The notes under the pieces: generated by a model | Databases searched by the model: none | The model's input: the letters and a program-made list of their open reading frames with translations, nothing else | Told to the model about the DNA's origin: nothing | Part shown: positions 29,805 to 58,244 of the stretch, in pieces | How positions within the stretch are numbered: position 1 is the first letter of the stretch | Layout: each line of letters opens with the position of its first letter | Translations under genes and position numbers: made by a program | Assembly: GCA_046758865.1 (NCBI GenBank) | Contig: JBHIBD010000001.1 | Coordinates: forward strand, 7,443-71,442 | DNA from: Candidatus Brocadiales bacterium | GTDB taxonomy: Bacteria; Planctomycetota; Brocadiia; Brocadiales; Bathyanammoxibiaceae | Length of the DNA stretch: 64,000 bases | Reading direction: 5' to 3'

Positions 29805-29990
29805 TCACTTCCAGAATTCCCAGACGTAACGCTCCTTCTTTTTGCCAAAGTCACAGTCTGAATTTGAGCACTTATACATCTCCCAACCGCTTGCGCTGGA
29901 AATAATAAGCTTACTTCCGCACTTGGGACACCTTTTAATCAGTCCCAGCCACCAGGCTAATTTTTTTACGTATGGCAGACTTTCTTTCAT
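29805..29990 (-). CDS. 61-aa zinc-ribbon mini-protein
   Basis: CPKCGS...YKCSNSDC gives two Cys pairs. ATGA start/stop overlap with the upstream dehydrase gene. The ORF ends 5 nt before the radical SAM start. Confidence 0.55.
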   Translation of the reverse strand: MKESLPYVKKLAWWLGLIKRCPKCGSKLIISSASGWEMYKCSNSDCDFGKKKERYVWEFWK

Positions 29991-43589: not shown

Positions 43590-44744
43590 ATGTATGATGT
43601 CATCACCGTAGGTGGAGGCCCTTCAGGGGCTTACACCTCGTATCTACTAGCCAAAGAAGGCCTTAAGGTGCTGCTGCTGGACAAGGGCCAGCCCGGCGGG
43701 AAGTTGTGCACAGGGGTGATAAGCGAAGAGGCCTTCCAGAGCTTCTCCTTGGATAGGAGGTGTATTCTGAGGGGGATACGTTCTATTGAGTTTGTGTCTC
43801 CTTTGGGAGGGGGCTTCATATACGAGCACCCAACACCTTTTGCCCACGCAGTGGATAGAAAGGCCTTTGATTCCCTGCTTCTAGACATGGCACAGGAGGC
43901 AGGGGTATCCTTCTTGGGGGAAGCGGTGGTTACCTCCCTGGAGGTGGCAAAGGAGGGGGTAAGGGTACGATACGGAAAAAATGGCCAATTTCAAACTACC
44001 GCACAGGCCTTGGCTTTAGCCACAGGGCTAAACCGGCGTCTTTTAAGAATGGTAGGATTAAAACCTCCAGATTATTTAAACGCTGTGCAGATAGAGACTG
44101 ACTTTGGCGGCGAAGACCAGGTTAAGGTCTTTCTTGGGAATAAGATTGCCCCGGGTTCTTTTGCCTGGGTGGTACCTCTAGGAGATGGTACGGCCAAGAT
44201 GGGCATGAGCACTAGAAGGCTCATTATGCCTAACTTCAGACGGTTTCTGAGATCGCTTGGGATAAAAGACGGAATTGCTGATATAAGGTCACGGTCCATC
44301 CCTTATGGAATGGCAGCTCGAACCTACACCAATAGGACTCTGGTGATAGGTGATGCCGCCGGCCATGCAAAGACCACTACCGGAGGCGGAATATACTATG
44401 GGCTTATCGGAGCTAGTATAGCCGCCGAGGTACTCAAAGAGGCCCTCTCAAAGGGAGATTTCAGCGAGGATTACCTCCAGGGCTATGAAGAAAGGTGGAA
44501 GGAGAGGCTGGCCCCAGAGATAGAGATGGGCATGAGGCTAAGAGGCGTCTTTTCCAGCTTTGATGATGAAAGAATAAACAAATTTATACAGTTTGCCAGG
44601 AACGATGGGATAGCCACCTTGATAAACCTACAGGCCAAATTTGACTGGCAGAGGCCCTTCTTCTCCTCTCTTTTACGAAGGCTCGACGTTAAAAGACTTC
44701 TGGGCAAAAACTTCTTTAAGCTTACACAACAGTTTTTTCCATGA
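43590..44744 (+). CDS. FAD-dependent oxidoreductase, geranylgeranyl-reductase family
   Basis: YDVITVGGGPSGAYTSYLLAKEGLKVLLLDK (FAD GxGxxG) and LVIGDAAGHAKTTTGGGIYYGLIGASIAAEV. Confidence 0.75.
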   Translation: MYDVITVGGGPSGAYTSYLLAKEGLKVLLLDKGQPGGKLCTGVISEEAFQSFSLDRRCILRGIRSIEFVSPLGGGFIYEHPTPFAHAVDRKAFDSLLLDMAQEAGVSFLGEAVVTSLEVAKEGVRVRYGKNGQFQTTAQALALATGLNRRLLRMVGLKPPDYLNAVQIETDFGGEDQVKVFLGNKIAPGSFAWVVPLGDGTAKMGMSTRRLIMPNFRRFLRSLGIKDGIADIRSRSIPYGMAARTYTNRTLVIGDAAGHAKTTTGGGIYYGLIGASIAAEVLKEALSKGDFSEDYLQGYEERWKERLAPEIEMGMRLRGVFSSFDDERINKFIQFARNDGIATLINLQAKFDWQRPFFSSLLRRLDVKRLLGKNFFKLTQQFFP

Positions 44745-45736
44745 AAGCACTAAGATATATAGTTACTGGCGGGGCTGGCTTTATAGGGAGCCATCTAGTT
44801 GATCACCTTGTAGCGGAAGGGCATGAGGTTACTGTCGTTGATAATTTTTCAACCGGAAGACCTGAAAATCTTGCCCATATCGGTAACCGCCTAAAGGTGC
44901 TTGAGGCGGATACTTCTGATTTTGAAAAAATTATGCCTTTCTTCAAGGATATTGATGTGGTTTTCCATCTCGCAGCCCTCGCTGACATTGTTCCATCTGT
45001 TTTAAGGCCGATGGACTACTATAAATCCAATGTCACCGGGACAGCACGTGTTGTTGAAGCGGCGCGTTTGGCAGGGGTAAAACGTTTAATATACGCTGCC
45101 TCGTCCTCTTGTTACGGAATTCCGGACATTTATCCCACACCTGAAACAGCAGAAATCCGTCCACAATACCCCTATGCATTGACAAAGTATTTAGGGGAAC
45201 AAATTGTTCTTCACTGGGGGAAAGTATATAAATTGCCAGTTGTGTCCCTCAGACTATTTAATGTATATGGGCCCCATTCTCGTACGTCGGGGGCATACGG
45301 TGCTGTGTTTGGTGTCTTCCTTGCACAGAAATTGAATAACATGCCATTCACAATAATAGGGGATGGAACACAAGTCAGGGATTTTACATTTGTAACCGAC
45401 ATTGTGAAGGCCTTTGTAATGTCTGCTAATTCAAATCTAAGAGGCGAAGTAATAAATGTGGGTTCTGGGAAAACACACAGCATTAATTACCTGGCTGAGT
45501 TATTGGGTTGTAATGGCAATATTGTATATATACCAAAACGCCCTGGAGAGCCAGAGTGTACTTGCGCTGACACAACCAAAATAAAGAGCCTCTTGAACTG
45601 GAAACCCACTGTATCTTTTGAGAATGGGGTAAAGATTATCCTTGAAAATATAGAATACTGGAGAAAAGCACCCGTCTGGACACCTGAGACAATTAAAGAG
45701 ACAACAAAAGAGTGGGTTCGGTATCTTTCGGAATAA
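44741..45736 (+). CDS. NAD-dependent epimerase/dehydratase (SDR)
   Basis: YIVTGGAGFIGSHLV and YALTKYLGE (YxxxK). Confidence 0.85.
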   Translation: MKALRYIVTGGAGFIGSHLVDHLVAEGHEVTVVDNFSTGRPENLAHIGNRLKVLEADTSDFEKIMPFFKDIDVVFHLAALADIVPSVLRPMDYYKSNVTGTARVVEAARLAGVKRLIYAASSSCYGIPDIYPTPETAEIRPQYPYALTKYLGEQIVLHWGKVYKLPVVSLRLFNVYGPHSRTSGAYGAVFGVFLAQKLNNMPFTIIGDGTQVRDFTFVTDIVKAFVMSANSNLRGEVINVGSGKTHSINYLAELLGCNGNIVYIPKRPGEPECTCADTTKIKSLLNWKPTVSFENGVKIILENIEYWRKAPVWTPETIKETTKEWVRYLSE

Positions 45737-45761
45737 ACTGTAAGGGAACTGATAGAGAATA

Positions 45762-47297
45762 ATGAAGGCATACAGAAAAGATGGGAAGATAAGAAGTCTC
45801 GATGAGTTAGAGAAAATAGTGCAAAGACTGAAAAAAAAGAATAAGACCGTAGTCCATTGTCATGGTGTTTTTGATCTTATGCATCCTGGTCACATTAAAC
45901 ACCTAGAGGCGGCGAAAAGAGAAGGTGATGTCCTGATTGTAACATTGACACAAGATAAATATGTTGGCAAAGGTCCGGGGAGGCCCGTATTTAACCAGCA
46001 TCTCAGGGCAGAATCTATAGTTGCACTCGAATGCGCTGATTATGTGGCAATAAATGAGTGGCAGACGGCGGTAGAAACTATCAAAAAGATAAAACCCGAT
46101 ATATATGCAAAGGGAAGTGATTACGCAGCCCCAGAGACAGACATAACGGGTGAGATATACCACGAAAAAGAAGCTATAGAGTCTATAGGTGGAAAGATTC
46201 ATTTCACAAATGAGACTACCTTTAGCTCATCACAGCTTTTAAATAAATTCTTTGATGTATATCCTGATGAGTCAAGAAAGTTTCTTCAAGATTTCCGTTC
46301 AAGATTTTCTTCATTCGATGTTATTGATAAATTGAAAGCCGTAAGGGATTTAAAGATACTTGTAATAGGAGATACTATTATTGATGAATACCACTACTGT
46401 GTACCAATGGGTAAGTCTCCTAAGGAGAGCATAATCTCAACAAAATACATCAGTGAAGAAAGATTTGCCGGAGGCGTGTTGGCATGTGCTAATCACATAG
46501 CAGGATTTTGCGATAATGTGCATTTAGTAACTTGTTTAGGAACTATGGATTCGAAAGAGGGCTATATCTTAGACCACTTAAAATCTCACATAGACTCTAA
46601 GTTCTTCTATCGCGATGATGCGTGTACTATTGTAAAGAGGAGATTTGTTGAATCTGCATTTCTAACCAAGATGTTTGAAATATCTTCCTTGGAAGACCGT
46701 CCGCTCCCTCAAGCCGTAAATCTTGCAGTTTGTGACTACCTGCACGCTGTAGCTGCGAATTATGACCTTGTTATTGTAGCCGATTTTGGGCACGGTTTTA
46801 TTGACCGGAATATTGTAAACGTTTTATGTGAGAAGGCGAGGTTTCTTGCCGTTAATACTCAGACTAACAGCGCAAACATCGGTTTTAACCTGGTAACTAA
46901 ATATCCGAGGGCAGATTTTGTGTGTATTGATGAGCCAGAAATAAGGCATGCCGCACATAGTAAGCATGGAGAAATTAAAGATATAATCCAAGAGATTGCA
47001 AAGAAACTAAAGAGCAAAAAGGTAGCTGTAACAAGGGGACACTTAGGATCGATTACTTACGATGAGACGGGCAGTTTTTATGAGATACCCGTTTTCTCAG
47101 GAAAAGTTGTTGACAGAGTAGGTGCAGGTGATGCCTTTCTTTCCCTAACATCACCGATAGTCACTTTGGGTTGCTCGATGGAACTGGCTGGTTTTGTAGG
47201 AAATGCTGTGGGGGCAATAGCGGTCGGTATTGTATGCAACAGGTCATCCGTTGAGCCTATTAGTCTATATAAATTTATTACCACCCTTCTTAAATGA
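45762..47297 (+). CDS. bifunctional nucleotidyltransferase (CTP_transf_like, N-terminal) / PfkB sugar kinase (C-terminal); HldE-like with reversed domain order
   Basis: N-terminus HCHGVFDLMHPGHIKHLEAAKREGDVLIV (HxGH). C-terminus DRVGAGDAFLS (PfkB signature 2). 511 aa. Confidence 0.8.
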   Translation: MKAYRKDGKIRSLDELEKIVQRLKKKNKTVVHCHGVFDLMHPGHIKHLEAAKREGDVLIVTLTQDKYVGKGPGRPVFNQHLRAESIVALECADYVAINEWQTAVETIKKIKPDIYAKGSDYAAPETDITGEIYHEKEAIESIGGKIHFTNETTFSSSQLLNKFFDVYPDESRKFLQDFRSRFSSFDVIDKLKAVRDLKILVIGDTIIDEYHYCVPMGKSPKESIISTKYISEERFAGGVLACANHIAGFCDNVHLVTCLGTMDSKEGYILDHLKSHIDSKFFYRDDACTIVKRRFVESAFLTKMFEISSLEDRPLPQAVNLAVCDYLHAVAANYDLVIVADFGHGFIDRNIVNVLCEKARFLAVNTQTNSANIGFNLVTKYPRADFVCIDEPEIRHAAHSKHGEIKDIIQEIAKKLKSKKVAVTRGHLGSITYDETGSFYEIPVFSGKVVDRVGAGDAFLSLTSPIVTLGCSMELAGFVGNAVGAIAVGIVCNRSSVEPISLYKFITTLLK

Positions 47298-47309
47298 AAC
47301 AGAAGCGTT

Positions 47310-47891
47310 ATGCAATTAGACCTTAAAAATTATCTTGACCAGCTTGAAAATACTTTATTAGAAATTCAGGTAACAAATTCTGATAATGCTAATATAGATT
47401 TGATTAATGGCATCGAGGAAGTTACAAAAATAATATCTGCTCAATCGGAGAAAGGCAACAAAGTTATAATGATTGGAAATGGCGGTAGCTCATCAATCGC
47501 AAGCCACATAACAGTCGATTTATGGAAAAACGGAGGAGTGAGGGCGATTACTTTTGGTGACCCAGCATTACTTACCTGTGTGAGTAATGACTTGGGTTAT
47601 GAGTGTGTCTTTGAAAAACCTATAAGGATGTTTGGTGATGCAGGGGATGTTCTTATTGCCATAAGCAGTTCTGGAAGATCAGAGAATATTCTAAATGGGG
47701 TTAGTGCAGCGGAGAAAAGATTGTGTAAAGTTATTACGATGTCTGGATTTGAACCAGATAATCCACTTCGCTCAGCTGGAGAGATAAACTTTTATGTCCC
47801 GTCCAATTCCTATGGATATGTGGAGATAGCCCATTTAGTTCTTTGTCATTATGTTGTGGATATAATAATAAACAAGAATTCACATGGATAG
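47310..47891 (+). CDS. gmhA: SIS-domain sedoheptulose-7-phosphate isomerase (GmhA-like)
   Basis: MIGNGGSSSIASHITVDL and LIAISSSGRSENIL. 193 aa. Confidence 0.8.
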   Translation: MQLDLKNYLDQLENTLLEIQVTNSDNANIDLINGIEEVTKIISAQSEKGNKVIMIGNGGSSSIASHITVDLWKNGGVRAITFGDPALLTCVSNDLGYECVFEKPIRMFGDAGDVLIAISSSGRSENILNGVSAAEKRLCKVITMSGFEPDNPLRSAGEINFYVPSNSYGYVEIAHLVLCHYVVDIIINKNSHG

Positions 47892-48951
47892 ATTCAGAAT
47901 AGATAGTCATAAGCTAATTTACCATGTGGGCAGGGTAAATGATTGGCTTGCAGGAATACCTGTCTATCCAATCTATACTGAGATAGCGACTTCAGGTGCA
48001 TGTAACCACCGATGTGCTTACTGTGCGCTTGACTATATGGGGTATCAGCAAAGGTTCCTGGACAAAAAGGTATTGATGGACAGGCTCTCTGAAATGGCGT
48101 CTCTTGGATTAAAGAGTGTTATGTATGCGGGGGAGGGTGAACCGCTTCTGCACAAGGATATTGTTGAGATAGTCAATCACACAAAGAAGGTCGGTATTGA
48201 TGTAGCCGTAACCACGAATGGGGTGCTGTTAAAGAAAGGTTTTGTTGACTCTGCGCTCAGTAATATTGCATGGATAAAGGTGAGCATAAATGGAGCAACA
48301 AAAGGAACCTATGCAAAGATTCACAGAGCAAGCCCTGATGATTTTGACAGGGTGATGGAAAACATGTCTTATGCAGCAAGGTTGAGAGATGAGAAGGGTT
48401 ATGACTGCGTTCTTGGTGTGCAGCTAATCCTCTTGCCAGAAAACTGCCCCGAGGTGACCCTTCTAGCACAAAAGGCCAAGGATATAGGCATGGATTATTT
48501 AGTTGTGAAGCCTTATTCACAGCATCCACTGAGTAAAACAACAAAGTATAAGGATATAAAATACAGTAAGTATCTTCATTTAGCAGACAGCCTAAATGGT
48601 CTTAACGATAGAAAGTTCAGCGTAATATTCCGCATTAACACAATGAAAAAGTGGGATGAAGGTATACGCAATTATAGACACTGCTATGCCCTTCCCTTCT
48701 GGTCATACATCGATGCTGGGGGCAATGTGTGGGGGTGTAGCGCTTATCTCTCCGACGAGCGTTTTCGATATGGCAACATTTATGAGAATACATTCAAGGA
48801 GATTTGGGAGGGCAAAAAAAGGATTCAGTCAGTTCGTTGGGCAGATGGGGAACTTGATACAAATCAGTGTAGGGTAAACTGCAGGATGGACGAAGTAAAC
48901 AAATATTTATGGGAATTAAAGCACCCCCCTGAACACGTAAATTTTATCTAG
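47884..48951 (+). CDS. radical SAM enzyme (non-B12), paralog 1 (355 aa)
   Basis: SGACNHRCAYC (CX3CX2C), YAGEGEPLL, a Cys-rich C-terminal part, and the tail WELKHPPEHVNFI. Confidence 0.85.
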   Translation: MDRFRIDSHKLIYHVGRVNDWLAGIPVYPIYTEIATSGACNHRCAYCALDYMGYQQRFLDKKVLMDRLSEMASLGLKSVMYAGEGEPLLHKDIVEIVNHTKKVGIDVAVTTNGVLLKKGFVDSALSNIAWIKVSINGATKGTYAKIHRASPDDFDRVMENMSYAARLRDEKGYDCVLGVQLILLPENCPEVTLLAQKAKDIGMDYLVVKPYSQHPLSKTTKYKDIKYSKYLHLADSLNGLNDRKFSVIFRINTMKKWDEGIRNYRHCYALPFWSYIDAGGNVWGCSAYLSDERFRYGNIYENTFKEIWEGKKRIQSVRWADGELDTNQCRVNCRMDEVNKYLWELKHPPEHVNFI

Positions 48952-48973
48952 GAATTGGGGCCGTAAATAAATA

Positions 48974-49417
48974 TTGGAAGCAAAGTACAGGGTAGCACTC
49001 ATTATTTTGTACGATCCCGGAAGAAGATTATTGCTTCAACACAGAACCAAAGATGCCAAAATACTACCCGATTATTGGGCGTTCTTTGGTGGTAGTGTTA
49101 GACAAGGAGAGACGCCACATGAAGCTGTTCGCAGAGAGGCACTTGAAGAGTTGAATTACAAACTCAAGGCACCTCAACTTTTTATTGAACAGGATTTCAA
49201 AATTGGCAGCACGGAAGGTTACATGTACGTATATATCGAAGCTTTTGATAGTGATAAGTCGTTGCTTAACTTACAGGAAGGACAAGGGTGGGGTTGGTAT
49301 AAAGCATCCGAGGTTGATGGCCTGAGAATGATCGACCATGATAGAAAGCTGGTAAAGTCAATAACACGCTATTTGGAAAATAGTACAAATACAAATTCTG
49401 AAAGGGCCGAGAGTTAA
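48974..49417 (+). CDS. NUDIX hydrolase
   Basis: Nudix box GGSVRQGETPHEAVRREALEELN. Confidence 0.85.
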   Translation: MEAKYRVALIILYDPGRRLLLQHRTKDAKILPDYWAFFGGSVRQGETPHEAVRREALEELNYKLKAPQLFIEQDFKIGSTEGYMYVYIEAFDSDKSLLNLQEGQGWGWYKASEVDGLRMIDHDRKLVKSITRYLENSTNTNSERAES

Positions 49418-49434
49418 AGATAAAGATGTAAAAG

Positions 49435-50265
49435 TTGCAAATGAGAATGAAAACAAAAGCAGAAGAAAAACTAAGTCTAATTGCAAAAGAGGTTAGAAAA
49501 TTAATTATAGAAGTTGCACACAGGTCAAAAAGCGCTCACGTAGGAACTTCATTGTCATGTGTTGATTTGATGGTTTCTCTTTATTTTCATGAACTACATA
49601 TCGATGAGAAGAGTTGGCACAATAGAGATATATTTGTGTTGAGCAAGGCACATGCGGCAATGGCCTTGTATGCCGTTTTAACGATTAAGGGTTTCATAGA
49701 CAAAGAAACTTTCTTAAATTATATGCAAGACGACGGAACATTACCAGCACATCTTGACCGGTTCACGGCTAAAGGTATAGAAGTTTCTGCCGGCTCGCTA
49801 GGGCATGGCTTCAATACGGCTTTAGGCATGGCTTATGGCTTTAAGACTAAAGGCGACAAGAGAAATGTTTTTGTATTGATAGGCGATGGAGAATCCGAAG
49901 AAGGGTCAATATGGGAGGGTGCTTTATTTGCACCGAAACTCGGTATCAACAATTTTACCGCAATTTTAGATTACAATAATTTGCAGGGATATGGCCGGCC
50001 CAATGAAATCTGTCACTACGAGCCTGTTGAGGACAAATGGAAGGCATTTGGATGGGAAGTTTGCAGGATAAACGGGCATAATTTCTCTGAAATTATTCAG
50101 GCTCTTAAAAGACCCAATAATGGAAGGCCCAAAATAATTATTGCTGATACCACAAAGGGAAAGGGCGTGTCCTTTATGGAGGATGAATTGAAGTGGCACT
50201 ATTTTATTGTTACTAAAGATTATAAGGAAAAGGCAATGCGGGACTTTAAGTCAGGGCAAGAATGA
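49435..50265 (+). CDS. transketolase, N-terminal (ThDP-binding) subunit
   Basis: AHVGTSLSCVDLM and GDGESEEGSIWEGALFA (GDG...EG ThDP motif). TTG start. Confidence 0.85.
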   Translation: MQMRMKTKAEEKLSLIAKEVRKLIIEVAHRSKSAHVGTSLSCVDLMVSLYFHELHIDEKSWHNRDIFVLSKAHAAMALYAVLTIKGFIDKETFLNYMQDDGTLPAHLDRFTAKGIEVSAGSLGHGFNTALGMAYGFKTKGDKRNVFVLIGDGESEEGSIWEGALFAPKLGINNFTAILDYNNLQGYGRPNEICHYEPVEDKWKAFGWEVCRINGHNFSEIIQALKRPNNGRPKIIIADTTKGKGVSFMEDELKWHYFIVTKDYKEKAMRDFKSGQE

Positions 50266-51173
50266 GGAATACCGTTATCAATAGAATTGCAAAATATGCA
50301 GAAGAGGATAAGAGCGTTTTTTTAGTAAGTGGCGATGCCGGCTTCGGCGTTCTTGATAAATATAAGAAATGTTTTCCGGACAAATATCTAAATCTAGGTG
50401 TTGCTGAGCAGAACATGATAAGCTTTGCTGCCGGACTGGGATTGGCTGGATATAACGTGTTTGTTTATAACATCATACCTTTTGTTCTTTATAGGTGTTA
50501 CGAGCAGGTGAGAAATGACATCTGTTATCAACGCTTACCAATAACATTAATAGGAATAGGAAGTGGTGTCACTTATGCACCACAGGGTATTACCCATTAC
50601 GGGGTAGAAGATATTGCAATAGCAAGGACTTTACCAAATTTAGTGATCCTTTCTCCATCCGACCCAGTGGAGGCAGAAAAGTGTGCAGAATTCGCATTTA
50701 AAAGCGATAGACCCGTTTATATAAGGGTAGCAAAAAGAGGAGAGCCTGCAATCCATAAAAATGGCATTGAAAGTATAACAGAACCCATAGTTATAAAAGA
50801 AGGTGAAGAAGTAGCCCTATTATTTCACGGCTCTATAAGCTATGAAGTAATTACGGCGCTAGGGAACTTGCAAAGCCTCCCCATGCTTATTTCCATTCCA
50901 ATGATCCAACCCTTGAATTTCACTTCACTCTTAAAAAAGCTGAAGAACGTTCACACCCTGATAACTGTTGAAGAACATTTCGTTGAGGGTGGCCTCGGCA
51001 GTGTTATATCAGAGTGGCTCACAAAGGAGAGACTGCCCTTCAGATTAAAAAGACTTGGAATAAAAAATGAATTTATTCATGCAATTCAAAGCAATAGCGG
51101 AATGAGGAGCATCTACGGCATCTCCAGTGCCAGTATTGGAAAAGCTGTTACGGAGGCCTTGGAGAGTGGCTAA
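50262..51173 (+). CDS. transketolase, C-terminal (pyrimidine-binding) subunit
   Basis: LNLGVAEQNMISFAAGLGLAG. ATGA overlap with the N-terminal subunit gene. Confidence 0.85.
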   Translation: MRNTVINRIAKYAEEDKSVFLVSGDAGFGVLDKYKKCFPDKYLNLGVAEQNMISFAAGLGLAGYNVFVYNIIPFVLYRCYEQVRNDICYQRLPITLIGIGSGVTYAPQGITHYGVEDIAIARTLPNLVILSPSDPVEAEKCAEFAFKSDRPVYIRVAKRGEPAIHKNGIESITEPIVIKEGEEVALLFHGSISYEVITALGNLQSLPMLISIPMIQPLNFTSLLKKLKNVHTLITVEEHFVEGGLGSVISEWLTKERLPFRLKRLGIKNEFIHAIQSNSGMRSIYGISSASIGKAVTEALESG

Positions 51174-52032
51174 AAAGGTTTTACTACTCGGCTCTACCGG
51201 CAAGATGGGGATGGCATTAAGAGAGGTCTTTGAGGACGGCTATACCGTTATCGGAAAAAACACCAGGGACTTTGACGCCCTCCGGCCGGAAAGCATTCGG
51301 AATCTGGTAGAGGAAAATAGACCGGACATGGTCATAAATACCGTCGCATTCTTAGGTATAGACCCGTGTGAAAGAGAGCCCGAAAAGGCCCTTAGGCTGA
51401 ATACACTTTATCCGAGAATGCTGGCAGAACTCTCAAACGAGAAAAGGTTTTTACTTATAAACTTTAGTACGGATGCCGTCTTTGACGATGGGGCGAGGGG
51501 GTTTTATACCGAAACCGACCGCCCGAGACCATTAAATTTGTATGGGTTTACAAAACACGGAGGGGATTGTTTTGTACAAACGATTTCAAAAAATTATTAT
51601 GTATTCAGACTCTCTGTCATATTTGGAAAGACTACCAAGAACACCCAGTTTGTAGAGAAGATGTTGCAAAAGGTGTGTGAGGGCCAGAAAGTCTTAAGGG
51701 TTGCAGACGACATTGTTTCTTCCCCCAGCTACAGTGTTGACATTGCCAAAGAAGTAAGGCGACTTACAGAGGCTTCATCAGAGTTCGGGCTTTACCATAT
51801 AGCGAATGAAGGGATGGCCACTCTATACGATTTAATGAATGAAATCGTCAAAAACCTCAATCTTGATGTCGAGGTGGAAAGGGCTTCCTACAAGGACTTC
51901 CCTTATTTAGGGAGAAAGAATACATTTACACCAATCAAATCAGAAAAAGTAGCCCCCCTGCGGCCATGGAGGGAGGCTGTTAAAGAGTATTGTGACGAAA
52001 AATTGAGAGGAGAAGTAACCCTTGCCAGATAA
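51127..52032 (+). CDS. RmlD-like NAD(P)H-dependent 4-keto-sugar reductase (RmlD_sub_bind family)
   Basis: KKVLLLGSTGKMG and YGFTKHGGD (YxxxK). The real start is probably the GTG (VAKKVLLLG) or ATG (MGMAL) 35-75 nt inside the track ORF. Confidence 0.75.
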   Translation: MPVLEKLLRRPWRVAKKVLLLGSTGKMGMALREVFEDGYTVIGKNTRDFDALRPESIRNLVEENRPDMVINTVAFLGIDPCEREPEKALRLNTLYPRMLAELSNEKRFLLINFSTDAVFDDGARGFYTETDRPRPLNLYGFTKHGGDCFVQTISKNYYVFRLSVIFGKTTKNTQFVEKMLQKVCEGQKVLRVADDIVSSPSYSVDIAKEVRRLTEASSEFGLYHIANEGMATLYDLMNEIVKNLNLDVEVERASYKDFPYLGRKNTFTPIKSEKVAPLRPWREAVKEYCDEKLRGEVTLAR

Positions 52033-53107
52033 ATACATAATGAATGGTCACAAGCTCTATTGGCACCTGGATAGAGTAATGGACTGGTTAAATGGGGAAA
52101 GGGTGGCGCCCATACATATTGATGTTGGTCTAAGTAAAGGATGCAATATCAGGTGCCAGTATTGCTTTGGTGTTATACAAGGCAACTTTTATAGAAAAGG
52201 TTCAGAGGTTTACTTCCCCCGCAAACCTTTATTGAGATATTTGAAAGAGGCAGGAAAAATAGGGGTGCGGTCTATGGCATTCGTTGGGGAGGCGGAACCA
52301 CTCTTGAATCCCTATGTCTATGAGGCAATCGCAGAAGGCAAGAGGGCTGGTGTTGATATTGCACTGGGGACGAACGGGATATTATTTGACACCGGAAAGA
52401 GGGGAGAAGAGGCGTTAGAACTTCTAAGCTGGATAAGGTTTAATATCAGTGCGGCTTCGGATGAGGCCTACAGAAGAATTCATGCCAGTAAGGAGTTCTC
52501 AACGGTTGTTGAGAAGATAAAGTTTTGCGTGGATTTGAAACGTCGAAAGGGCCTGAATGCCACAATCGGCCTCCAAATGGTTCTAACTCCAGCTAATGTT
52601 GACCAGGCCGTCCCCCTGGCCAAACTGGGAAGACAGCTGGGGGTAGACTACTGTGTTATAAAACAGTGCAGTGATACGGTTGAGAATGCTCTTGGGATAT
52701 ACGGTAGACTTCAGGAATACGACAATTTTGCAGACGTTCTCCAAGAGGCTGAAGGTATAAGCTCGAATGGTTACAACGTAATAGTAAAATGGGGAAAGAT
52801 TACAAACAAAGGAGAGAGGAGTTACGACCAGTGTATCGGTGTCCCGCTTCTGTTATATTCAAGCGGCGATGGAAGGTTGTACCCGTGTGGAGCATTTTTC
52901 GACTTCAAAGAGGAAGAATATAGAATGGGGGACCTTGTAAAACAATCTTTTAAAGAAATCTTTGAGAGTGACAGATACTGGGAGGTTGTGGAAAAGGTCA
53001 AGAGAATAGATGTTCACAAAGAGTGCTATTCAAACTGCAGGACGCATTGTATAAACAAATTTCTCTGGCAATTGACTCATCCACCGGAACACGTCAATTT
53101 TGTTTAG
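52022..53107 (+). CDS. radical SAM enzyme (non-B12), paralog 2 (361 aa)
   Basis: SKGCNIRCQYC (CX3CX2C), FVGEAEPLL, and the tail WQLTHPPEHVNFV. The N-terminus GHKLYWHLDRVMDWLNG parallels SHKLIYHVGRVNDWLAG of paralog 1. Confidence 0.85.
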   Translation: MPDKYIMNGHKLYWHLDRVMDWLNGERVAPIHIDVGLSKGCNIRCQYCFGVIQGNFYRKGSEVYFPRKPLLRYLKEAGKIGVRSMAFVGEAEPLLNPYVYEAIAEGKRAGVDIALGTNGILFDTGKRGEEALELLSWIRFNISAASDEAYRRIHASKEFSTVVEKIKFCVDLKRRKGLNATIGLQMVLTPANVDQAVPLAKLGRQLGVDYCVIKQCSDTVENALGIYGRLQEYDNFADVLQEAEGISSNGYNVIVKWGKITNKGERSYDQCIGVPLLLYSSGDGRLYPCGAFFDFKEEEYRMGDLVKQSFKEIFESDRYWEVVEKVKRIDVHKECYSNCRTHCINKFLWQLTHPPEHVNFV

Positions 53108-53112
53108 GCAAA

Positions 53113-53895
53113 ATGCAACCAACGGATAATAACAAAATCGATCTAACGGTTGTAATGCCAGCACTTAACGAGGGGGAAAATATCCTGGCTGCTGTTAACA
53201 ATACCTTGAGGGCCTTTGAAGATTTTAGCATTAATGGCGAGATTATTGTGATTAATGATGGGAGTACCGATGGGACAGAGGATGTAGTAAAGGATATAAT
53301 AAAAAAAGATAACCGTGTCAGGTTAATCAGGCATGACACCCCTAAAGGCATAGGCACATCGTTTTGGAATGGGGTCGATGCCGCGGATGGAGATATAGTG
53401 ACCTGGATCCCCGGCGATAATGAAAACGACCCGTGGGAAATTTTCCGTTATTACAAGTTACTCGAACAGGTAGATGTTGTTGTCCCCTTTGTCTATAATA
53501 GAGAAGTACGGCCACTCTTCAGGAATGCACTCTCATTTGTTTACCGCTTCATTGTCAACACCACCTTCTTGGTAAATTTTAATTATACAAACGGAACAGT
53601 CCTCTACCGTAGATCCATCTTAAAAGAACTGGATTATAGGAGTGAGGGCTTCTTCTTTCAAACCGACATTTTGATAAGAACCGTAAAAAAGGGCTATCTC
53701 TTTGCTGAAGTCCCCTATAGGCTTGGCTTGAGAAAAGAAGGGGTGTCTAATGCGGTATCCTTTCCTTCCCTGTTGCAAGTTATAAAGGGCTACCTGCGCC
53801 TAATGAAAGATCAGTATTTTGACAAAGACAGAGAGAGTAAACCGCATTTTTCGGATGATTCCTTAACAACAACCAGACGGCAAATTAAGCAATGA
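53113..53895 (+). CDS. GT2 polyprenol-phosphate sugar synthase-like transferase (Dpm1/GtrB/ArnC-like), start moved to the internal ATG
   Basis: LTVVMPALNEGENI, VINDGSTDGT and IPGDNENDP. The ATG at 53113 lies just after the stop of the upstream gene. Confidence 0.8.
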   Translation: MQPTDNNKIDLTVVMPALNEGENILAAVNNTLRAFEDFSINGEIIVINDGSTDGTEDVVKDIIKKDNRVRLIRHDTPKGIGTSFWNGVDAADGDIVTWIPGDNENDPWEIFRYYKLLEQVDVVVPFVYNREVRPLFRNALSFVYRFIVNTTFLVNFNYTNGTVLYRRSILKELDYRSEGFFFQTDILIRTVKKGYLFAEVPYRLGLRKEGVSNAVSFPSLLQVIKGYLRLMKDQYFDKDRESKPHFSDDSLTTTRRQIKQ

Positions 53896-53923
53896 CAGAG
53901 ATCATAATTGCAAAAAGAGTTAC

Positions 53924-54451
53924 TTGGTCATGAGGGTTCTATTTTGGGGCTCAGCCATTTTTTGCGCATCTTTCTTTTTACATCTGGTTATCTGGAAAGT
54001 ACGTCTGCCCAAAAGACAGTCAAAGGCTCTGTTCCAAATCTTTTTTGGAGTCTTAGTTGCAAGTATTTCTATTCTATGGGGCACATCGGCATTTCTTGCG
54101 AACCGTGAGTCTTCTGCTCCGGGAAGTCATTTAGAATACCTGCACATTTGCCTGTTTTTTACTTCACTTACACTAGCTTACATACTTACTTACGTTGCCG
54201 TTGAGGTGGACAGCCCTTCCCTCGTAATGGTAATGAGCATTGCCATGGCCGGTTCAGAAGGGTTAGATGAGAAACGATTCAACCAGAGAATGACTGACGA
54301 CCTGTTGATAAAACCAAGAATAAGAGACCTCGTTCATGATGAGCTAATCTATATGGAAGGAAACAAATATAAGCTAACTTCAAAAGGATTTCTGGTTGTA
54401 CGCATATTTAGCTTATATCGTAGATTGCTAAATGCAGAAATTGGTGGTTGA
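53924..54451 (+). CDS. small membrane protein (about 3-4 TM) with winged-helix-like C-terminal domain, paralog 1
   Basis: Hydrophobic N-terminal half, then C-terminal LIKPRIRDLVHDELIYMEGNKYKLTSKGFLVV. Confidence 0.6.
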   Translation: MVMRVLFWGSAIFCASFFLHLVIWKVRLPKRQSKALFQIFFGVLVASISILWGTSAFLANRESSAPGSHLEYLHICLFFTSLTLAYILTYVAVEVDSPSLVMVMSIAMAGSEGLDEKRFNQRMTDDLLIKPRIRDLVHDELIYMEGNKYKLTSKGFLVVRIFSLYRRLLNAEIGG

Positions 54452-54986
54452 GTTTCTTATGCCTTATAGCCTTTTGCATGTTCTAAACCCAATTTTAGGT
54501 CTAATTATTAATGTACTGATGCAGGTTGTCAGTTTCAGGTATATTCCCAGGTTGGGATTATTAAAGTCGATAATTTTAGGTTTTGCTACGGGTCTTACTG
54601 TCGTTTTGACACTTGAACTGTGTGTTTTCTCCACGCAGTCAACATCTACAGATGATTTTGTGCCTATTTTTATTGTCAACTTTATAATGTATTCTTCACT
54701 GGGATATTGTTATTTTCATTTCGCAAATCTTGGGGAGACAGCCCGCCGCATCAGGATATTGAGAGAATTATATGATTCAAAAGAGGGATTATCAATGCAG
54801 GAAATTCTGCAAAGATATAACGCCAGAAAAATTGTTGAAGTAAGAATAAATAGGCTTATTAACAACGGACAAATTATATACAAAAGTGGCAGATATTATA
54901 TTGGAAACCCCGTCATGCTGATAATAGCGAAGATTGTAGTAATGATGAAGCTAATCATTCTTGGGAAAAGAAGCGAATTTGATTGA
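54432..54986 (+). CDS. small membrane protein (about 3 TM) with winged-helix-like C-terminal domain, paralog 2
   Basis: RRIRILRELYDSKEGLSMQEILQRYNARKIVEVRINRLINNGQIIYKSGRYYIG. An alternative start is MPYSLL at 54459. Confidence 0.6.
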   Translation: MQKLVVEFLMPYSLLHVLNPILGLIINVLMQVVSFRYIPRLGLLKSIILGFATGLTVVLTLELCVFSTQSTSTDDFVPIFIVNFIMYSSLGYCYFHFANLGETARRIRILRELYDSKEGLSMQEILQRYNARKIVEVRINRLINNGQIIYKSGRYYIGNPVMLIIAKIVVMMKLIILGKRSEFD

Positions 54987-55017
54987 CACTGCACCATGAG
55001 TAATATTCTAAAAGACG

Positions 55018-55281
55018 GTGTACTATAAATCGCTCCTTGACGATGGTATGTTTAAGAAGGATTACTGGGCAGAGTTTATCAAGAAGCCCACAAAAGATTT
55101 TGAGTTACCTCTCCCGAGAAGCAAGGAGTTACAACTGGTAGATTCTTATCATCGTGTCTTCTTCTTGAACCCCACGTTCATATTACGAGAGCTACGTGGG
55201 TCTATTCTTACATGGAAAATGTTTTTTATCGCTTTTTTCACTGAAAGAACTATTGATAAAATCTTTGCTTCGAGGCCTTAG
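55018..55281 (+). pseudogene. C-terminal remnant of a B12-binding radical SAM gene
   Basis: GMFKKDYWAEFIKKPTKDFELPLP...SYHRVFFLNPTFILRELRG matches the usual tail of this family (compare TTFYLNPIFYRKEVLRRIR in 17459..18916). There is no catalytic core, and the ORF begins right after the upstream gene's stop. Confidence 0.6.
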
Positions 55282-55298
55282 GAAGGATGTAAAAAGAA

Positions 55299-56813
55299 AT
55301 GTATGATTTACTCCTAATCTCTCCACGAAACACACAGCTCGGACGTTTTAAGAGGTTTGTGCCGAGAAGTGTGCCTATTGGAATAGGCATCTTGGCCGGG
55401 TTTCTTAGAGGGAAGGGTATTTCCGCCAAGATACTTGACCAGGAGTTGACAGATATAAGTACGGAAACATTGCGGAGCTGCCTAGCGCAATGCAAAAAAC
55501 CTTGGATCGTTGGCATTAGCGTCATGACAGCGAATGTTGCCAGTGGATATCACATAGCTAAATTGGTGAAGTCTGTTAGTAAAGAAGCAGTTGTCGTATT
55601 CGGGGGCATTCACGCCACAGTAATGCCAGATGAGATTCTTCTGTCGGGTTGCGTTGACTTTGTTGTTCAAGGGGAGGCGGAATATACACTTTTGGAACTA
55701 ATCCGTCAGATTAAGGGTGGTAGAATTCAACGAGATACGCTTGAAAACATCAGTTACGTGGAAGACGGACAAATCATTTACACAAAGCCCTCAACAAAGA
55801 CGGTAGATGTAAATGAGGTTCCCATGTTTCCTTATGACATGTTTGACCCATCAAAATATAACCTTGGTTTCATCCTGACATCCAGGGGATGCCCGTTTGA
55901 TTGTATCTTTTGCAGTCAGAAGGCCATTACGAAGAGGGTTTATAGGTACGTTTCGTCAGAAAGAGTAGTCGAAGAGCTTGATTACATAATAAATGAGATG
56001 CACCAACCAAACATTACCTTTTTTGATGATTATTTTACCGGGAATAAAAAAAGGGTATTTGAGCTGTGCAACATGATTCAAGAAAGAGGGCTGCACAAAA
56101 AGGCCTCTTTTGGAGTCCAAACCCGTGGCGATAGCATTGACAAGGAACTTATGATAGCTATGAAAGCGGCTAACTTTGACAGTCTGATGTTCGGTGTCGA
56201 AACTGCTTCGGAAGATTTGATGAAGTTAATTAATAAGAATGAAACTGTCCAGGAAAATATCGATGCAATAAGATTAGCCAAGGAGATTGGTTTTACAGTA
56301 GAAGCTACATTCATCTACGGGTTTCCGACCGAGACCTTCAAGGACAGACTTGCAGCCCTCTCTCTTGCAGTGAGTATTGGGATAGACAGGGCCAGGTTTA
56401 ATAATGCCACACCGTACCCTGGCACACAAATGTATAAAATGGTTAGGGACAAGATTAATTTCGCACCTCAGTGGGTGAACTTTAGCTCTGCCGGTGCAGT
56501 TACAGCAGGTATTAGGAAGAAATACCCTCTTCCATATATTCCGGAAGGCTGCACAGAGAATGAACTTGAAGGAAGTGTTCTTTTGGCAAATCTTTTGTTT
56601 TATCTAAATCTCGTCAACTTAAAAAAACTTTTCAACCCCGGACAGAGAGGCAGTGGTAAATGGTTTGAAGTATCTAAGAATGACCTTCTATCACCAAGCG
56701 CGCTATTTGGACTATTGATACTGGGGGGAACAGTTTTATTAAGAACTCTTTATTATCTACTTTCGTGCGGCAATTGCCGCAGATTTTTCCTCAAGGGTCT
56801 CAGGGTAACGTAA
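55299..56813 (+). CDS. B12-binding-domain radical SAM enzyme
   Basis: TSRGCPFDCIFCSQ (CX3CX2C) after a B12-binding-like N-domain (LLLISPRN...PIGIGILAGFL). Confidence 0.85.
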   Translation: MYDLLLISPRNTQLGRFKRFVPRSVPIGIGILAGFLRGKGISAKILDQELTDISTETLRSCLAQCKKPWIVGISVMTANVASGYHIAKLVKSVSKEAVVVFGGIHATVMPDEILLSGCVDFVVQGEAEYTLLELIRQIKGGRIQRDTLENISYVEDGQIIYTKPSTKTVDVNEVPMFPYDMFDPSKYNLGFILTSRGCPFDCIFCSQKAITKRVYRYVSSERVVEELDYIINEMHQPNITFFDDYFTGNKKRVFELCNMIQERGLHKKASFGVQTRGDSIDKELMIAMKAANFDSLMFGVETASEDLMKLINKNETVQENIDAIRLAKEIGFTVEATFIYGFPTETFKDRLAALSLAVSIGIDRARFNNATPYPGTQMYKMVRDKINFAPQWVNFSSAGAVTAGIRKKYPLPYIPEGCTENELEGSVLLANLLFYLNLVNLKKLFNPGQRGSGKWFEVSKNDLLSPSALFGLLILGGTVLLRTLYYLLSCGNCRRFFLKGLRVT

Positions 56814-56846
56814 GACCTCTCATAGAAATCCGATGCGAGGTTTTGT

Positions 56847-58244
56847 TTGACTTCTAACATGGACGCAAGTGGGTTCGGTAAGAGTAGCCTTATCCTGACT
56901 GCTGTGCTGGTGGCGGCATTTACTCTAAGAGTACTTGTTGGACTTAGTCTTTACTCGGGTAATATGCCATTGTTCAAAGACTTTCAGGGCAGTTTTTGGG
57001 ATAGCGGGTATACCGCTTACGGTGTGCTAGCCATAAACGTTGTCGAAGGCAGGGGATTTCGTTTGCAGCACGGAGGTAAAAATGGCGTTTATTTCATGGG
57101 AGAGACGAGGGCTGAACGGATGCCCTTATATCCCTTATTCCTGTCAGTGTTATATGTTGGATTCGGTAAGAGCACCACGGCTCCAGTACTCGCTCAATCC
57201 ATTATAGGAACATTGACCGTTTTAATTACCTTTTTGATAGGACGGCAGCTTTTCAATGAGAAGGTAGGAATAGCAGCCTCTTCGTTGACAGCAATTTATC
57301 CCTATTATGTTGTCCATGACACAGCCCTCCAAGAAACGAGCCTTCTCACGTTGCTGACAGGTGTCAGCGTTCTATGCCTTATAAAATGTATCCGGTACAA
57401 TTCATTGCGCTACTATGTCCTAGCTGGCGTTTCCCTGGGAATTGGATCCCTCTGCAAAAATATTCTACTAGGTTTTGTACCTTTTGCAGTCTTTTGGATT
57501 CTCTTAAATCCCATAAAAGACAAGACTAGAAAGATTTCAATCCTGTTACTCAGTTTTGCCATAGTAATGTCTCCATGGGTAATTCGCAACACACTTGTTC
57601 TCGGTAAACCTATTATTGGTACCACCCAGACCGGCGGTGTTTTGTGGCAGGGGAACAATCCCTTCGTTTTATCTTACTACCCGTGGAAAAGTATCGATAA
57701 CAGTACAGGGAAGGCATTGGAGGCCCTCACAACAAAAGATAAAAAAGAGTTGCTTGGCCTGGATGAGTTAGGAAAACAGCGCTGGTACAGGCAAAAGGCG
57801 GTTAAGTTTATGAGAGAAAACCCAGTGCTTACCATAAAGGCTGCGTTTATCAAGGCCTTTGCCGGCATGGGTTGGATTCTTTCACCACAAAAAGATAGGC
57901 CAATTTTAAACTTTATCTACACAGCATCTTATCTCCCTTTGCTTATATTTGGAATTGCTGGTGCCATCCTTACCAGGAAGACCTGGAGAGAGATTTCCAT
58001 CATCTATTTTTTATTTGTTCCTTTTCTGCTGATAACGATGCTCTTCTTTGCTCATACCTCAAGCCGGGTGTATTTAGACATATACCTTATGGTTTTAGCT
58101 GCTTTCACGTTGGTGAAGGTTGGAGAATGGCTGTGGCTTAACTTGACTCAGACACCGTTACGGGCAAGTACGAAAACCGCCCCCCCAGCTCAAAACACGA
58201 ATTTTACTACAAAAAGAATTTTATCGCAAGAGAATAATTTATGA
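56847..58244 (+). CDS. GT-C fold polytopic glycosyltransferase (ArnT/PMT_2-like)
   Basis: 465 aa with more than 10 TM segments, TTG start and a loop-rich N-terminal third as in family-39/83 enzymes. Assignment is by architecture and context. Confidence 0.6.
   Translation: MTSNMDASGFGKSSLILTAVLVAAFTLRVLVGLSLYSGNMPLFKDFQGSFWDSGYTAYGVLAINVVEGRGFRLQHGGKNGVYFMGETRAERMPLYPLFLSVLYVGFGKSTTAPVLAQSIIGTLTVLITFLIGRQLFNEKVGIAASSLTAIYPYYVVHDTALQETSLLTLLTGVSVLCLIKCIRYNSLRYYVLAGVSLGIGSLCKNILLGFVPFAVFWILLNPIKDKTRKISILLLSFAIVMSPWVIRNTLVLGKPIIGTTQTGGVLWQGNNPFVLSYYPWKSIDNSTGKALEALTTKDKKELLGLDELGKQRWYRQKAVKFMRENPVLTIKAAFIKAFAGMGWILSPQKDRPILNFIYTASYLPLLIFGIAGAILTRKTWREISIIYFLFVPFLLITMLFFAHTSSRVYLDIYLMVLAAFTLVKVGEWLWLNLTQTPLRASTKTAPPAQNTNFTTKRILSQENNL

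Follow-up and report, generated by a model that had tools for sequence, protein, structure and literature searches.

A radical SAM and thiamine enzyme cassette in a glycan locus of an anammox bacterium and its proposed role in heptose remodelling

Among the closest described relatives of the system considered here are pathways in which a nucleotide sugar is branched by an enzyme dependent on thiamine diphosphate (ThDP). YerE, an enzyme of the acetolactate synthase (ALS) type, transfers an acetyl branch from pyruvate onto CDP-4-keto-3,6-dideoxyglucose, after which YerF carries out a reduction, and this pair has been generalised together with ErwE/ErwF to a common logic of ThDP branching followed by NAD(P)H reduction (PMC9306805). 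The E1-like pairs AviB1/B2 and Pau11/12 have been proposed to branch sugars likewise, followed in turn by the ketoreductase Pau7 (PMC4753412). Here we analyse a gene cassette on a metagenome-assembled contig of Candidatus Brocadiales (anammox Planctomycetota), of which a stretch of 64,000 nt, referred to as the window, was studied. The cassette joins two radical S-adenosylmethionine (SAM) enzymes and a split transketolase-like ThDP enzyme to genes for sugar activation and delivery; it is new as such and is related to known nucleotide-sugar tailoring with ThDP branching. From comparison of its sequences we tentatively favour a reading, falling a little short of probable, in which the cassette would activate a heptose, give it a C2 branch or a C2 extension through radical SAM and ThDP chemistry, and deliver the product via a lipid carrier, all independently of oxygen.

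Layout and distribution of the cassette

The core of the cassette is a run of eight co-directional, tightly packed open reading frames (ORFs) on the + strand, which the ORF listing places at 45762-53107 of the window (Table 1). Successive genes are either separated by gaps of 12, 22 and 17 nt or overlap by 8, 4, 47 and 11 nt, overlaps accounting for four of the seven junctions. An initial annotation of this DNA had described eight contiguous genes with assigned domains; the ORFs lie exactly where it had placed them, and every domain call was borne out by Pfam. Families were assigned against the equivalog cut-offs of NCBIfam (June 2026). None of the eight proteins reached such a cut-off, and neither did the GT2-family glycosyltransferase (GT2) and the two small membrane proteins (mem1 and mem2) encoded immediately downstream. 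Database proteins bearing the name Candidatus Brocadiales are 100% identical to the first radical SAM enzyme (radical SAM 1) and to the 511-aa protein that opens the run. The cassette extends beyond the eight core genes on both sides and forms an operon-like unit of about 44741-58244.

Table 1. Genes of the cassette, with positions in the window
Feature	Position	Strand	Length (aa)	Supporting match
SDR1, extended short-chain dehydrogenase/reductase (SDR), epimerase type	44741..45736	+		Pfam Epimerase E 6e-61
Bifunctional HxGH nucleotidyltransferase (N-terminal) and PfkB sugar kinase (C-terminal), 'reversed HldE'	45762..47297	+	511	Pfam, NCBIfam
GmhA-like SIS sugar-phosphate isomerase	47310..47891	+	193	SIS_2 (E 1e-12), GmhA models
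Radical SAM 1, CNHRCAYC cluster motif and C-terminal twitch/SPASM domain; cassette signature gene	47884..48951	+	355	Pfam Radical_SAM + SPASM
Small MutT-like Nudix hydrolase, accessory	48974..49417	+	147	NUDIX E 1e-16
TktN, ThDP-binding subunit of split transketolase-like enzyme	49435..50265	+	276	Transketolase_N E 4e-34
TktC, pyrimidine-binding and C-terminal subunit, non-canonical acceptor pocket	50262..51173	+	303	Transket_pyr + Transketolase_C
RmlD-like NAD(P)H ketoreductase, subtype-specific accessory	51127..52032	+	301	RmlD_sub_bind E 2e-57
Radical SAM 2, paralog of radical SAM 1	52022..53107	+	361	Pfam Radical_SAM + SPASM
GT2, putatively of the polyprenyl-phosphate glycosyltransferase type	53113..53895	+		Glycos_transf_2 E 2e-24
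mem1, three transmembrane helices and C-terminal winged-helix-like domain	53924..54451	+		no Pfam or NCBIfam family
mem2, distant mem1 paralog	54432..54986	+		full-length alignment with mem1; C-terminal domain E 0.002
B12-binding radical SAM enzyme, probably methyltransferase, accessory	55299..56813	+		Pfam B12-binding + Radical_SAM
GT-C fold glycosyltransferase (PMT_2/ArnT-like)	56847..58244	+		PMT_2 E 4e-16

One genome per species was scanned with an alignment built from homologs of radical SAM 1, and 42 true loci resulted; partners were counted on these by mapping the window proteins with tblastn and by clustering of all ORFs. Beside radical SAM 1 homologs, these 42 loci of other organisms repeat the gene families of the window in the order seen there, so the arrangement is not a product of chance. 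The hosts are Omnitrophota, Elusimicrobia, Nitrospirae, Sedimentisphaerales and other Planctomycetota, Rokubacteria, Desulfuromonadales, Campylobacterales, Gallionella, Nitrosomonadales, Magnetococcales, Mariprofundaceae, Chlorobiaceae, Fibrobacter, Lachnospiraceae, Fretibacterium, Polyangium and a metagenome-assembled genome (MAG) of Nanoarchaeia. The cassette occurs in glycan loci of more than ten phyla, and its signature family, spanning Nanoarchaeia to Campylobacterales, is not confined to one genome. An exhaustive search of 1.8 billion representative proteins assigned 463 clusters at 50% identity to the radical SAM 1 family (E<=1e-30); the best 120 database matches of the window protein are all at least 66% identical to it.

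Partners differ considerably in how widely they are conserved. A ThDP enzyme is present in 28 of the 42 loci, homologs of radical SAM 2 (35-68% identity) in about 25, the nucleotidyltransferase-kinase in 20, SDR1 in 19 (59-65% identity, as a rule next to radical SAM 1) and the SIS protein in 17, and GT2 stands beside radical SAM 2 in at least ten; a DHS/ArgZ-like protein was found in six other loci. The Nudix gene occurs in three to four loci and the RmlD-like gene in two to three. The proposal that the eight genes form a self-sufficient unit therefore fails, since it includes these two sporadic members and leaves out the conserved SDR1 and GT2, and the neighbourhood search suggested for that eight-gene set returned instead a different, larger conserved unit.

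The assignment to a glycan locus, by comparison, is confirmed by the neighbouring genes. In every locus examined the cassette lies among GT2, GT9 or GT-C glycosyltransferases, nonulosonic-acid genes, Wzx or ABC exporters, or sugar aminotransferases. Alternatively, the cassette might make a cofactor, a lipid head group, an antimetabolite comparable to 7-deoxysedoheptulose or some other small molecule that is not a glycan, its glycan setting being incidental. Anammox bacteria do contain many unassigned radical SAM genes, and in a cyanobacterium transketolase can make 7-deoxysedoheptulose from 5-deoxyribose, a by-product of radical SAM enzymes (PMC8102628). The constant presence of glycan genes around the cassette, together with a GT2 that is conserved and sometimes fused, makes such a product highly improbable.

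Two carriers are in culture, both with the genes under generic names. Solidesulfovibrio carbinolicus DSM 3852 holds the cassette on plasmid pDCAR1 beside pseudaminic-acid genes, and Azospirillum oryzae KACC 14407 has a version with an E1-type ThDP enzyme. The S. carbinolicus locus (L046, pDCAR1 67846-96907) also comprises pseB, pseF, a NeuB-like synthase, a second transketolase pair and three more radical SAM genes, a setting in a cultured sulfate reducer that suggests a flagellin or surface-glycan island. A phage or plasmid origin of the cassette was rejected, the three plasmid matches being informative merely as cultured examples. Scalindua, a second anammox genus, carries radical SAM 1, TktN, a short beta subunit, GT2 and radical SAM 2, together with a 170-aa protein, the B12-binding radical SAM enzyme, a YfhO protein (GT-C), mem1 and mem2. 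A match in Streptomyces vietnamensis (26% identity) belongs to a different sugar cluster devoid of cassette partners and was not used. Full-text searches of the literature retrieved no description of the cassette, no curated family covers it, and none of its genes is mentioned in a paper on the Kuenenia S-layer glycan; the view that no characterised pathway has this combination thus still stands.

The radical SAM pair and its thiamine partner

As had been noticed before, the two radical SAM proteins are paralogs; they align over their full length (31% identity, E 5e-70) and have in common an unusual C-terminal motif, HPPEHVNF(I/V). Among 13 diverse radical SAM 1 sequences, cysteines C40, C44 and C47 are invariant along with C267, C285, C329 and C333, and the latter four point to a single auxiliary cluster in a twitch-like domain. 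The best solved relative by sequence is BlsE. An AlphaFold model of radical SAM 1 (pLDDT 75) retrieves DesII first, followed by SuiB, SkfB, anSME, BlsE, PqqE, viperin and MoaA; scores on the NCBIfam models are far under their cut-offs (for example 55/400 for BlsE, 43/450 for DesII and 59/180 for viperin). The substrates of DesII, a TDP-sugar enzyme, and of BlsE and viperin are nucleotide sugars, nucleosides or nucleotides. Members of the radical SAM 1 family are also found fused to other domains, namely SIS, methyltransferase and, in P0298, ALS/YerE-type ThDP domains and, in three proteins, a cytidylyltransferase-like domain. The fold kinship with DesII, BlsE and viperin and the cytidylyltransferase fusions argue for a nucleoside diphosphate (NDP)-sugar as the substrate. 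As to the reaction, generation of a carbonyl is favoured because a ThDP carboligase needs such an electrophile. One family member of 631 aa (P0285) is interrupted by an intein with an HNH endonuclease domain (Pfam Intein_splicing + HNH_3), located just before or within the radical SAM core.

The ThDP enzyme of the window is split into two chains. TktN resembles the N chain of a split transketolase (6yak, E 3e-67) and conserves the catalytic His residues and the GDG...N ThDP/Mg motif, and TktC matches the partner chain (6yaj, E 2e-39) and retains the cofactor Glu (AEQN). The acceptor pocket of TktC is altered: ATHAG..GEDGASHQ of 6yaj corresponds to IGIGSG..APQGITHY, so that Gly and Gln replace the pocket His and Asp, a change that is also seen in the nearest cassette homologs (L026 and L036). 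The lost residues correspond to His461 and Asp469 of E. coli TktA, which bind the phosphate and the C2-hydroxyl of the acceptor. On the transketolase model of NCBIfam (627 positions, cut-off 488), TktN scores 219 bits and TktC 130 bits, TktC scoring slightly higher on the DXS model.

The slot following radical SAM 1 is not reserved for this class of enzyme. It is occupied by a transketolase-type N subunit in 16 loci, with a long or truncated beta subunit, and in 12 loci by an E1 alpha/beta pair of the pyruvate dehydrogenase (PDH) type (Pfam E1_dh) without E2 or E3; the transketolase-type and E1-type alpha classes are just 17-21% identical. In L007 and L021 the neighbours of the E1 pairs are radical SAM 1 and GT2 instead of E2/E3, and in L007, from a Nitrospirae MAG, a single 580-aa ORF (12064-13806) fuses the E1 beta subunit (Transket_pyr + Transketolase_C) with GT2, a fusion that ties the thiamine step physically to the lipid-carrier step. 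P0298 combines an ALS/YerE-type ThDP domain with a radical SAM domain in a single ORF on its contig, and its radical SAM half is of the radical SAM 1 type (39% identity, as against 30% to radical SAM 2). Three unrelated ThDP classes have thus been recruited beside radical SAM 1, of which only one is able to make sedoheptulose-7-P. Given these swaps, the P0298 fusion and the altered TktC pocket, the ThDP enzyme most likely serves as a tailoring enzyme that transfers a C2 unit according to the logic of YerE/YerF, rather than as a supplier of sedoheptulose-7-P. The specific idea that this unit is ligated onto a keto-sugar nucleotide comes from synteny and from the P0298 fusion.

These findings bear on the pathway that was originally envisaged, in which eight genes make a modified ADP-heptose on their own: transketolase supplies sedoheptulose-7-P, the Nudix enzyme stands in for GmhB, and the reductase and radical SAM enzymes tailor the product. 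In its favour, TktN and TktC are clearly homologous to a genuine split transketolase, the likeness to GmhA and HldE stands, and no HAD phosphatase was found in the window. Neither E1 pairs nor the ALS-type enzyme, however, could make sedoheptulose-7-P from the same functional slot, TktC lacks the canonical residues for binding acceptor and phosphate, the Nudix gene is found in few kinase-bearing loci and has the wrong chemistry, and the conserved unit takes in genes outside the eight. We consider this pathway very unlikely; what stands of the transketolase proposal is its other branch, the transfer of a C2 unit.

Might the ThDP enzyme nevertheless act at the start of the pathway? A transketolase-type enzyme could make octulose-8-P, and one of the E1/DXS type a 1-deoxy-ketose phosphate, for activation by the SIS protein, kinase and nucleotidyltransferase. 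The pathway to the lincosamide octose has such an order, with isomerase, kinase, phosphatase and nucleotidyltransferase following a step that forms a C-C bond; TktC is nearly as close to DXS as it is to transketolase, and its altered pocket would fit an unusual acceptor. Against this, in L014 and L021 the ThDP enzyme is present together with both radical SAM enzymes and GT2, and no SIS or kinase gene lies within 10 kb, a 1-deoxy-ketose is not isomerisable to an aldose by a GmhA-type enzyme, the ThDP-radical SAM and E1 beta-GT2 fusions bind the ThDP step to the late pathway, and the ThDP genes lie 3' of radical SAM 1 in most loci. An early role is distinctly unlikely on these grounds.

More serious is the possibility that the radical SAM proteins are oxygen-independent epimerases or deoxygenases that yield a stereoisomeric or deoxy heptose, with the ThDP enzyme, reductase and Nudix hydrolase optional and a nine-carbon sugar no part of the core chemistry. 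It counts as a serious rival because L018 and L042 contain both radical SAM genes and no ThDP gene, from which it follows that the radical SAM chemistry does not strictly need the ThDP enzyme. Sugar epimerases and dehydratases with twitch-domain radical SAM folds exist (NeoN, HygY, AprD4), and the carriers are mostly anaerobes or microaerophiles. The ThDP enzyme nonetheless directly follows radical SAM 1 in about two-thirds of the loci, and the recruitment of three unrelated ThDP classes, one of them by fusion, argues for a coupled reaction. We therefore regard this rival as rather unlikely and retain a C2-transferring ThDP enzyme in the tentatively favoured scheme.

The reductase encoded next to the ThDP enzyme resembles the RmlD family (TIGR01214, 190 bits with a cut-off of 224), and its best relatives in the PDB are all RmlD. 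The window, L010 and L026 are the only loci in which it comes after the Tkt pair.

Sugar activation, delivery and the proposed pathway

Which sugar would the radical SAM and ThDP enzymes modify? The 511-aa protein combines a CTP_transf_like domain (E 5e-15, residues 34-154, motif HPGH) with a PfkB domain (E 7e-18, residues 198-489), and its nearest NCBIfam families are rfaE_dom_II (107 bits, cut-off 181) and rfaE_dom_I (97 bits, cut-off 345), followed by families below 40 bits. On the HldE model it scores 146 bits and does not reach the cut-off of 521. At least 7992 homologs have the same architecture, all under generic names. The earlier comparison with ADP-heptose synthesis therefore holds as far as the nearest family is concerned, and fails in that the order of the domains is the reverse of that in HldE. 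For the SIS protein, too, the GmhA assignment holds at the level of the nearest family (100 bits, cut-off 265), with the next-best far lower, and solved GmhA structures align over the full length. The equivalents of GmhA His61 and His180 are retained and those of Glu65 and Gln172 are changed to Asp and Glu, respectively; all four are catalytic or metal residues of GmhA. Since enzymes of ADP-heptose synthesis are the nearest relatives of the isomerase and of either domain of the 511-aa protein, the best reading is a route of the heptose type through isomerase, kinase and nucleotidyltransferase, catalysed by enzymes that appear not to be orthologs of those of E. coli. In six loci, genes similar to GT9 heptosyltransferases adjoin radical SAM 1 homologs, which supports a heptose nucleotide as the substrate and suggests an alternative route of delivery. 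The SIS and cytidylyltransferase fusions of the radical SAM 1 family likewise speak for a heptose.

SDR1 finds its best NCBIfam matches in GalE, LegB and TviC, all below cut-off, and its best PDB relatives among small GalE and UXS enzymes; on the heptose_epim model it reaches 123 bits (cut-off 275), less than on the GalE and LegB models. Its motif AASSSCYG lacks the Asp/Glu pair of 4,6-dehydratases and is of the epimerase type. Owing to this motif, SDR1 is unlikely to be the enzyme that generates the carbonyl.

In agreement with the initial annotation, no HAD-type GmhB was found: the D-x-D-G-T/V motif is missing from all frames of the window, which speaks against a GmhB hidden in it, and Pfam detected no HAD domain among the 38 window ORFs scanned, although a copy may exist elsewhere in the genome. 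The Nudix hydrolase had been offered as a replacement. Nudix enzymes cut pyrophosphate bonds, not phosphomonoesters. This chemistry, the generic character of the protein, whose relatives are MutT and NudI only, and its absence from most related kinase-bearing loci (about 90%) make it an unlikely substitute for GmhB; possibly it controls the NDP-sugar pool. A specific ADP-sugar or GDP-mannose hydrolase was also considered and dropped in view of the merely generic similarity. In L027, L030 and L040 a pair of genes (c30/c31) for a HAD-family hydrolase and an APH/choline-kinase-like phosphotransferase comes right after radical SAM 1 and may represent an alternative phosphate-handling module in place of GmhB.

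Delivery appears to follow a familiar layout. The longest ORF of GT2 begins at 53023, the ATG at 53113 being the likelier start, and the best PDB relatives of the protein, albeit weak ones (about 41 bits), are ArnC, archaeal dolichol-phosphate mannose synthase (DPMS) and GtrB. Together with the GT-C enzyme at the end of the cassette, which is the likely user of the lipid-linked sugar, GT2 would make up the architecture of a polyprenyl-phosphate sugar relay. The closing GT-C gene varies between carriers: PMT_2 in the window, TPR-GT-C in L007, L014, L021 and L042, and YfhO in Scalindua. Between GT2 and the GT-C gene lie mem1 and mem2; mem2 has the same three transmembrane helices and C-terminal winged-helix-like domain as mem1 and likewise no Pfam or NCBIfam family. 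At least 179 homologs of mem1 exist, all called 'hypothetical', and Foldseek searches with an AF2 model (pLDDT 78) gave weak MarR-type winged-helix matches only (E>0.07); on the same evidence a relationship of mem1 to GtrA, ArnE/F or DPM3 was rejected. mem1 comes after GT2 or radical SAM 2 in seven loci and is also present in Scalindua; mem2 occurs in three, and the two, whose placement is conserved across several phyla, are paired in L021, L036 and the Scalindua locus (L050). A role as partner or anchor of GT2, or as a flippase, is a guess. The B12-binding radical SAM enzyme is below all NCBIfam cut-offs and has homologs in several related loci, occupying the same position in Scalindua. A part in ladderane-lipid synthesis was rejected for this protein, which scores 105 bits on the ladderane-associated family (cut-off 360).

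How might these enzymes cooperate? We envision that, as homology suggests, the GmhA-like isomerase and the reversed-HldE-like enzyme would make an NDP-heptose out of a ketose phosphate, most likely sedoheptulose-7-P, and the epimerase-type SDR1 would adjust one stereocentre. Radical SAM 1, judged by its fold, fusions and synteny, would then take a hydrogen from the NDP-sugar and leave a carbonyl, either by dehydrogenation (compare BtrN and anSME) or by dehydration of a diol (compare AprD4 and viperin). To this carbonyl the split transketolase-like enzyme would add a two-carbon glycolaldehyde unit, and the RmlD-like reductase would reduce the new ketone; in sister loci, the PDH-E1-type or ALS-type enzyme would add acetyl or hydroxyethyl from pyruvate. 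Radical SAM 2 would perform a second radical step, conceivably an epimerisation, a deoxygenation or a ring closure. Finally, as homology and synteny indicate, the ArnC/DPMS-like GT2 would load polyprenyl phosphate with the sugar, mem1 and mem2 might serve as anchors of GT2 or as flippases of the lipid, and, outside the cytoplasm, the GT-C enzyme would pass the sugar on to a glycan or protein of the cell surface. Our best guess at the product is a nine-carbon sugar, that is a C2-branched or C2-extended heptose.

A bolder version of this scheme, which we advance as speculative and rather unlikely, couples the ThDP enzyme to radical SAM 1, with which it is fused in some organisms, so that the pair would forge a C-C bond on an NDP-heptose under anoxic conditions. 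The coupling could consist of radical oxidation followed by carboligation, or the ThDP enamine could directly capture the sugar radical. Such a pair would give rise to a new family of nine-carbon (heptose plus C2) sugars, possibly closed by radical SAM 2 into carbocyclic caryose-like structures, which would decorate the cell surface in anammox bacteria and in representatives of over ten phyla that are mostly uncultured.

Several observations weigh against the pathway that we favour. The substrates of the eight core proteins, all of which score below the equivalog cut-offs, were assigned by nearest family only. The radical SAM 1 model is of moderate confidence, and peptide-modifying enzymes are among its fold neighbours. 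TktN is about equally similar to a genuine housekeeping split transketolase and to some cassette homologs, the P0298 fusion is known from a single 4.4-kb metagenomic contig, and two loci, as described above, have both radical SAM genes without a ThDP gene. SDR1 is closer to UDP-hexose epimerases than to the heptose epimerase HldD. No GmhB-type phosphatase for the 7-phosphate was found in the window, and a HAD gene is present in only three of the 42 loci.

If true, the pathway would constitute an oxygen-independent route to branched or higher-carbon sugars that applies radical SAM and thiamine catalysis to one nucleotide sugar. It would give names to several thousand database entries now called 'PfkB family kinase' and 'radical SAM protein', and it would allow new monosaccharides to be predicted from sequence and new biocatalysts for C-C bond formation to be found. 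The two anammox genera that carry the cassette are important in wastewater treatment, a setting in which the formation of biofilms is shaped by surface glycoproteins. The cultured S. carbinolicus DSM 3852 and A. oryzae KACC 14407 make the question directly testable.

Genomic surroundings and relation to known systems

The cassette sits in a long co-directional block of a large glycan island. Upstream, Pfam identifies Wza, Wzz/GNVR, a tyrosine-kinase-type ATPase, a Wzy_C protein, a TPR protein, a geranylgeranyl-reductase-family flavoprotein and the epimerase-type SDR; downstream, GT2, the two family-less membrane proteins, the B12-binding radical SAM enzyme and the PMT_2 GT-C transferase are followed by a ManC-like enzyme. 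A divergent block on the minus strand encodes a Wzx flippase, GT1 and GT2 enzymes, GDP-mannose 4,6-dehydratase, a DegT aminotransferase and a further B12 radical SAM enzyme. Gene orientation and GC skew change sign together at ~37000 of the window (left negative, right positive), where the two large glycan gene blocks meet in a divergent junction. Rfam found no TPP, SAM or cobalamin riboswitch in the window, its sole matches being two tRNAs. A consensus scan for internal promoters gave a count equal to that expected from shuffled sequence and no convincing candidate, and terminator-like sites are mostly intragenic, with none outstanding at the gene junctions of the cassette.

Some of the neighbours merit mention in their own right. 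The flavoprotein directly 5' of the cassette (43590-44744, + strand; TIGR02032, 193 bits, above cut-off) might produce a dolichol-like carrier by saturating the polyprenyl lipid; the 42 related loci yielded no counterpart. In the divergent block, a 781-aa protein (25019-27364, - strand) fuses a GT2 domain to a PMT_2 (GT-C) domain next to GDP-mannose 4,6-dehydratase, the DegT aminotransferase, an SDR and the second B12-binding radical SAM enzyme (28349-29854), and this region may be a second, self-contained lipid-relay glycosylation module. Two paralogous 163-aa proteins (46% identity, E 9e-37) with CarboxypepD_reg-like domains and signal-peptide-like N-termini bracket the + strand glycan operon in opposite orientations (36582-37073, - strand, and 58364-58855, + strand) and might be glycosylation targets or matrix proteins. 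An 88-aa ORF between the tyrosine-kinase ATPase and the Wzy_C gene (40944-41210, + strand) matches only the first half of the Uma2 family of putative endonucleases and is probably a gene remnant.

How does the cassette relate to systems that are already understood? With the ADP-heptose pathway (GmhA, HldE or HldA+HldC, GmhB, HldD) it has in common a SIS isomerase, a PfkB kinase and an HxGH nucleotidyltransferase, the latter two united in one protein as in HldE. In HldE, however, the kinase is N-terminal and the adenylyltransferase C-terminal, an order that is reversed in the window; scores are well under the equivalog cut-offs, GmhB is missing, the SDR is GalE/UXS-like and not HldD-like, and two GmhA residues (Glu65 and Gln172) are exchanged. 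At the other end of the pathway, GT2, small membrane proteins and a GT-C enzyme recall the polyprenyl-phosphate relays ArnC/ArnE-F/ArnT, GtrB/GtrA/GtrC and CsbB/GtcA/YfhO. The GT2 of the window is nevertheless short (about 260 aa), apparently without the usual C-terminal membrane helices, and mem1 and mem2 are unrelated to GtrA or ArnE/F and possess their winged-helix-like domain.

Among radical SAM enzymes, DesII, BlsE, BtrN, AprD4 and viperin resemble radical SAM 1 in their CX3CX2C core and single C-terminal auxiliary-cluster (twitch-like) domain. Identity to this group is only 12-18%, and the N-terminal region, the HPPEHVNF(I/V) motif and the occurrence as a paralog pair are distinctive of the cassette enzymes. 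The split-chain transketolase of Carboxydothermus hydrogenoformans (6yak/6yaj) agrees with TktN-TktC in its two-subunit architecture, ThDP/Mg motif, catalytic His and cofactor Glu; the window enzyme differs by the Gly and Gln of its C chain in place of the pocket His and Asp, by its place in a glycan operon and by the E1 pairs that take its position elsewhere. A further analogy is offered by YerE/YerF and the AviB1/B2-type systems, in which a ThDP enzyme without E2/E3 likewise resides in a sugar cluster with a reductase immediately after it (TktN-TktC-RmlD-like in the window). The transketolase type of the window enzyme would make glycolaldehyde the donor rather than acetyl, a heptose probably takes the place of the 3,6-dideoxyhexose scaffold, and the acceptor carbonyl would come from a radical SAM enzyme rather than from a 4,6-dehydratase and an E1/E3 system. 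The sister loci have an E1 alpha/beta pair comparable to AviB1/B2 or an ALS-type enzyme comparable to YerE.

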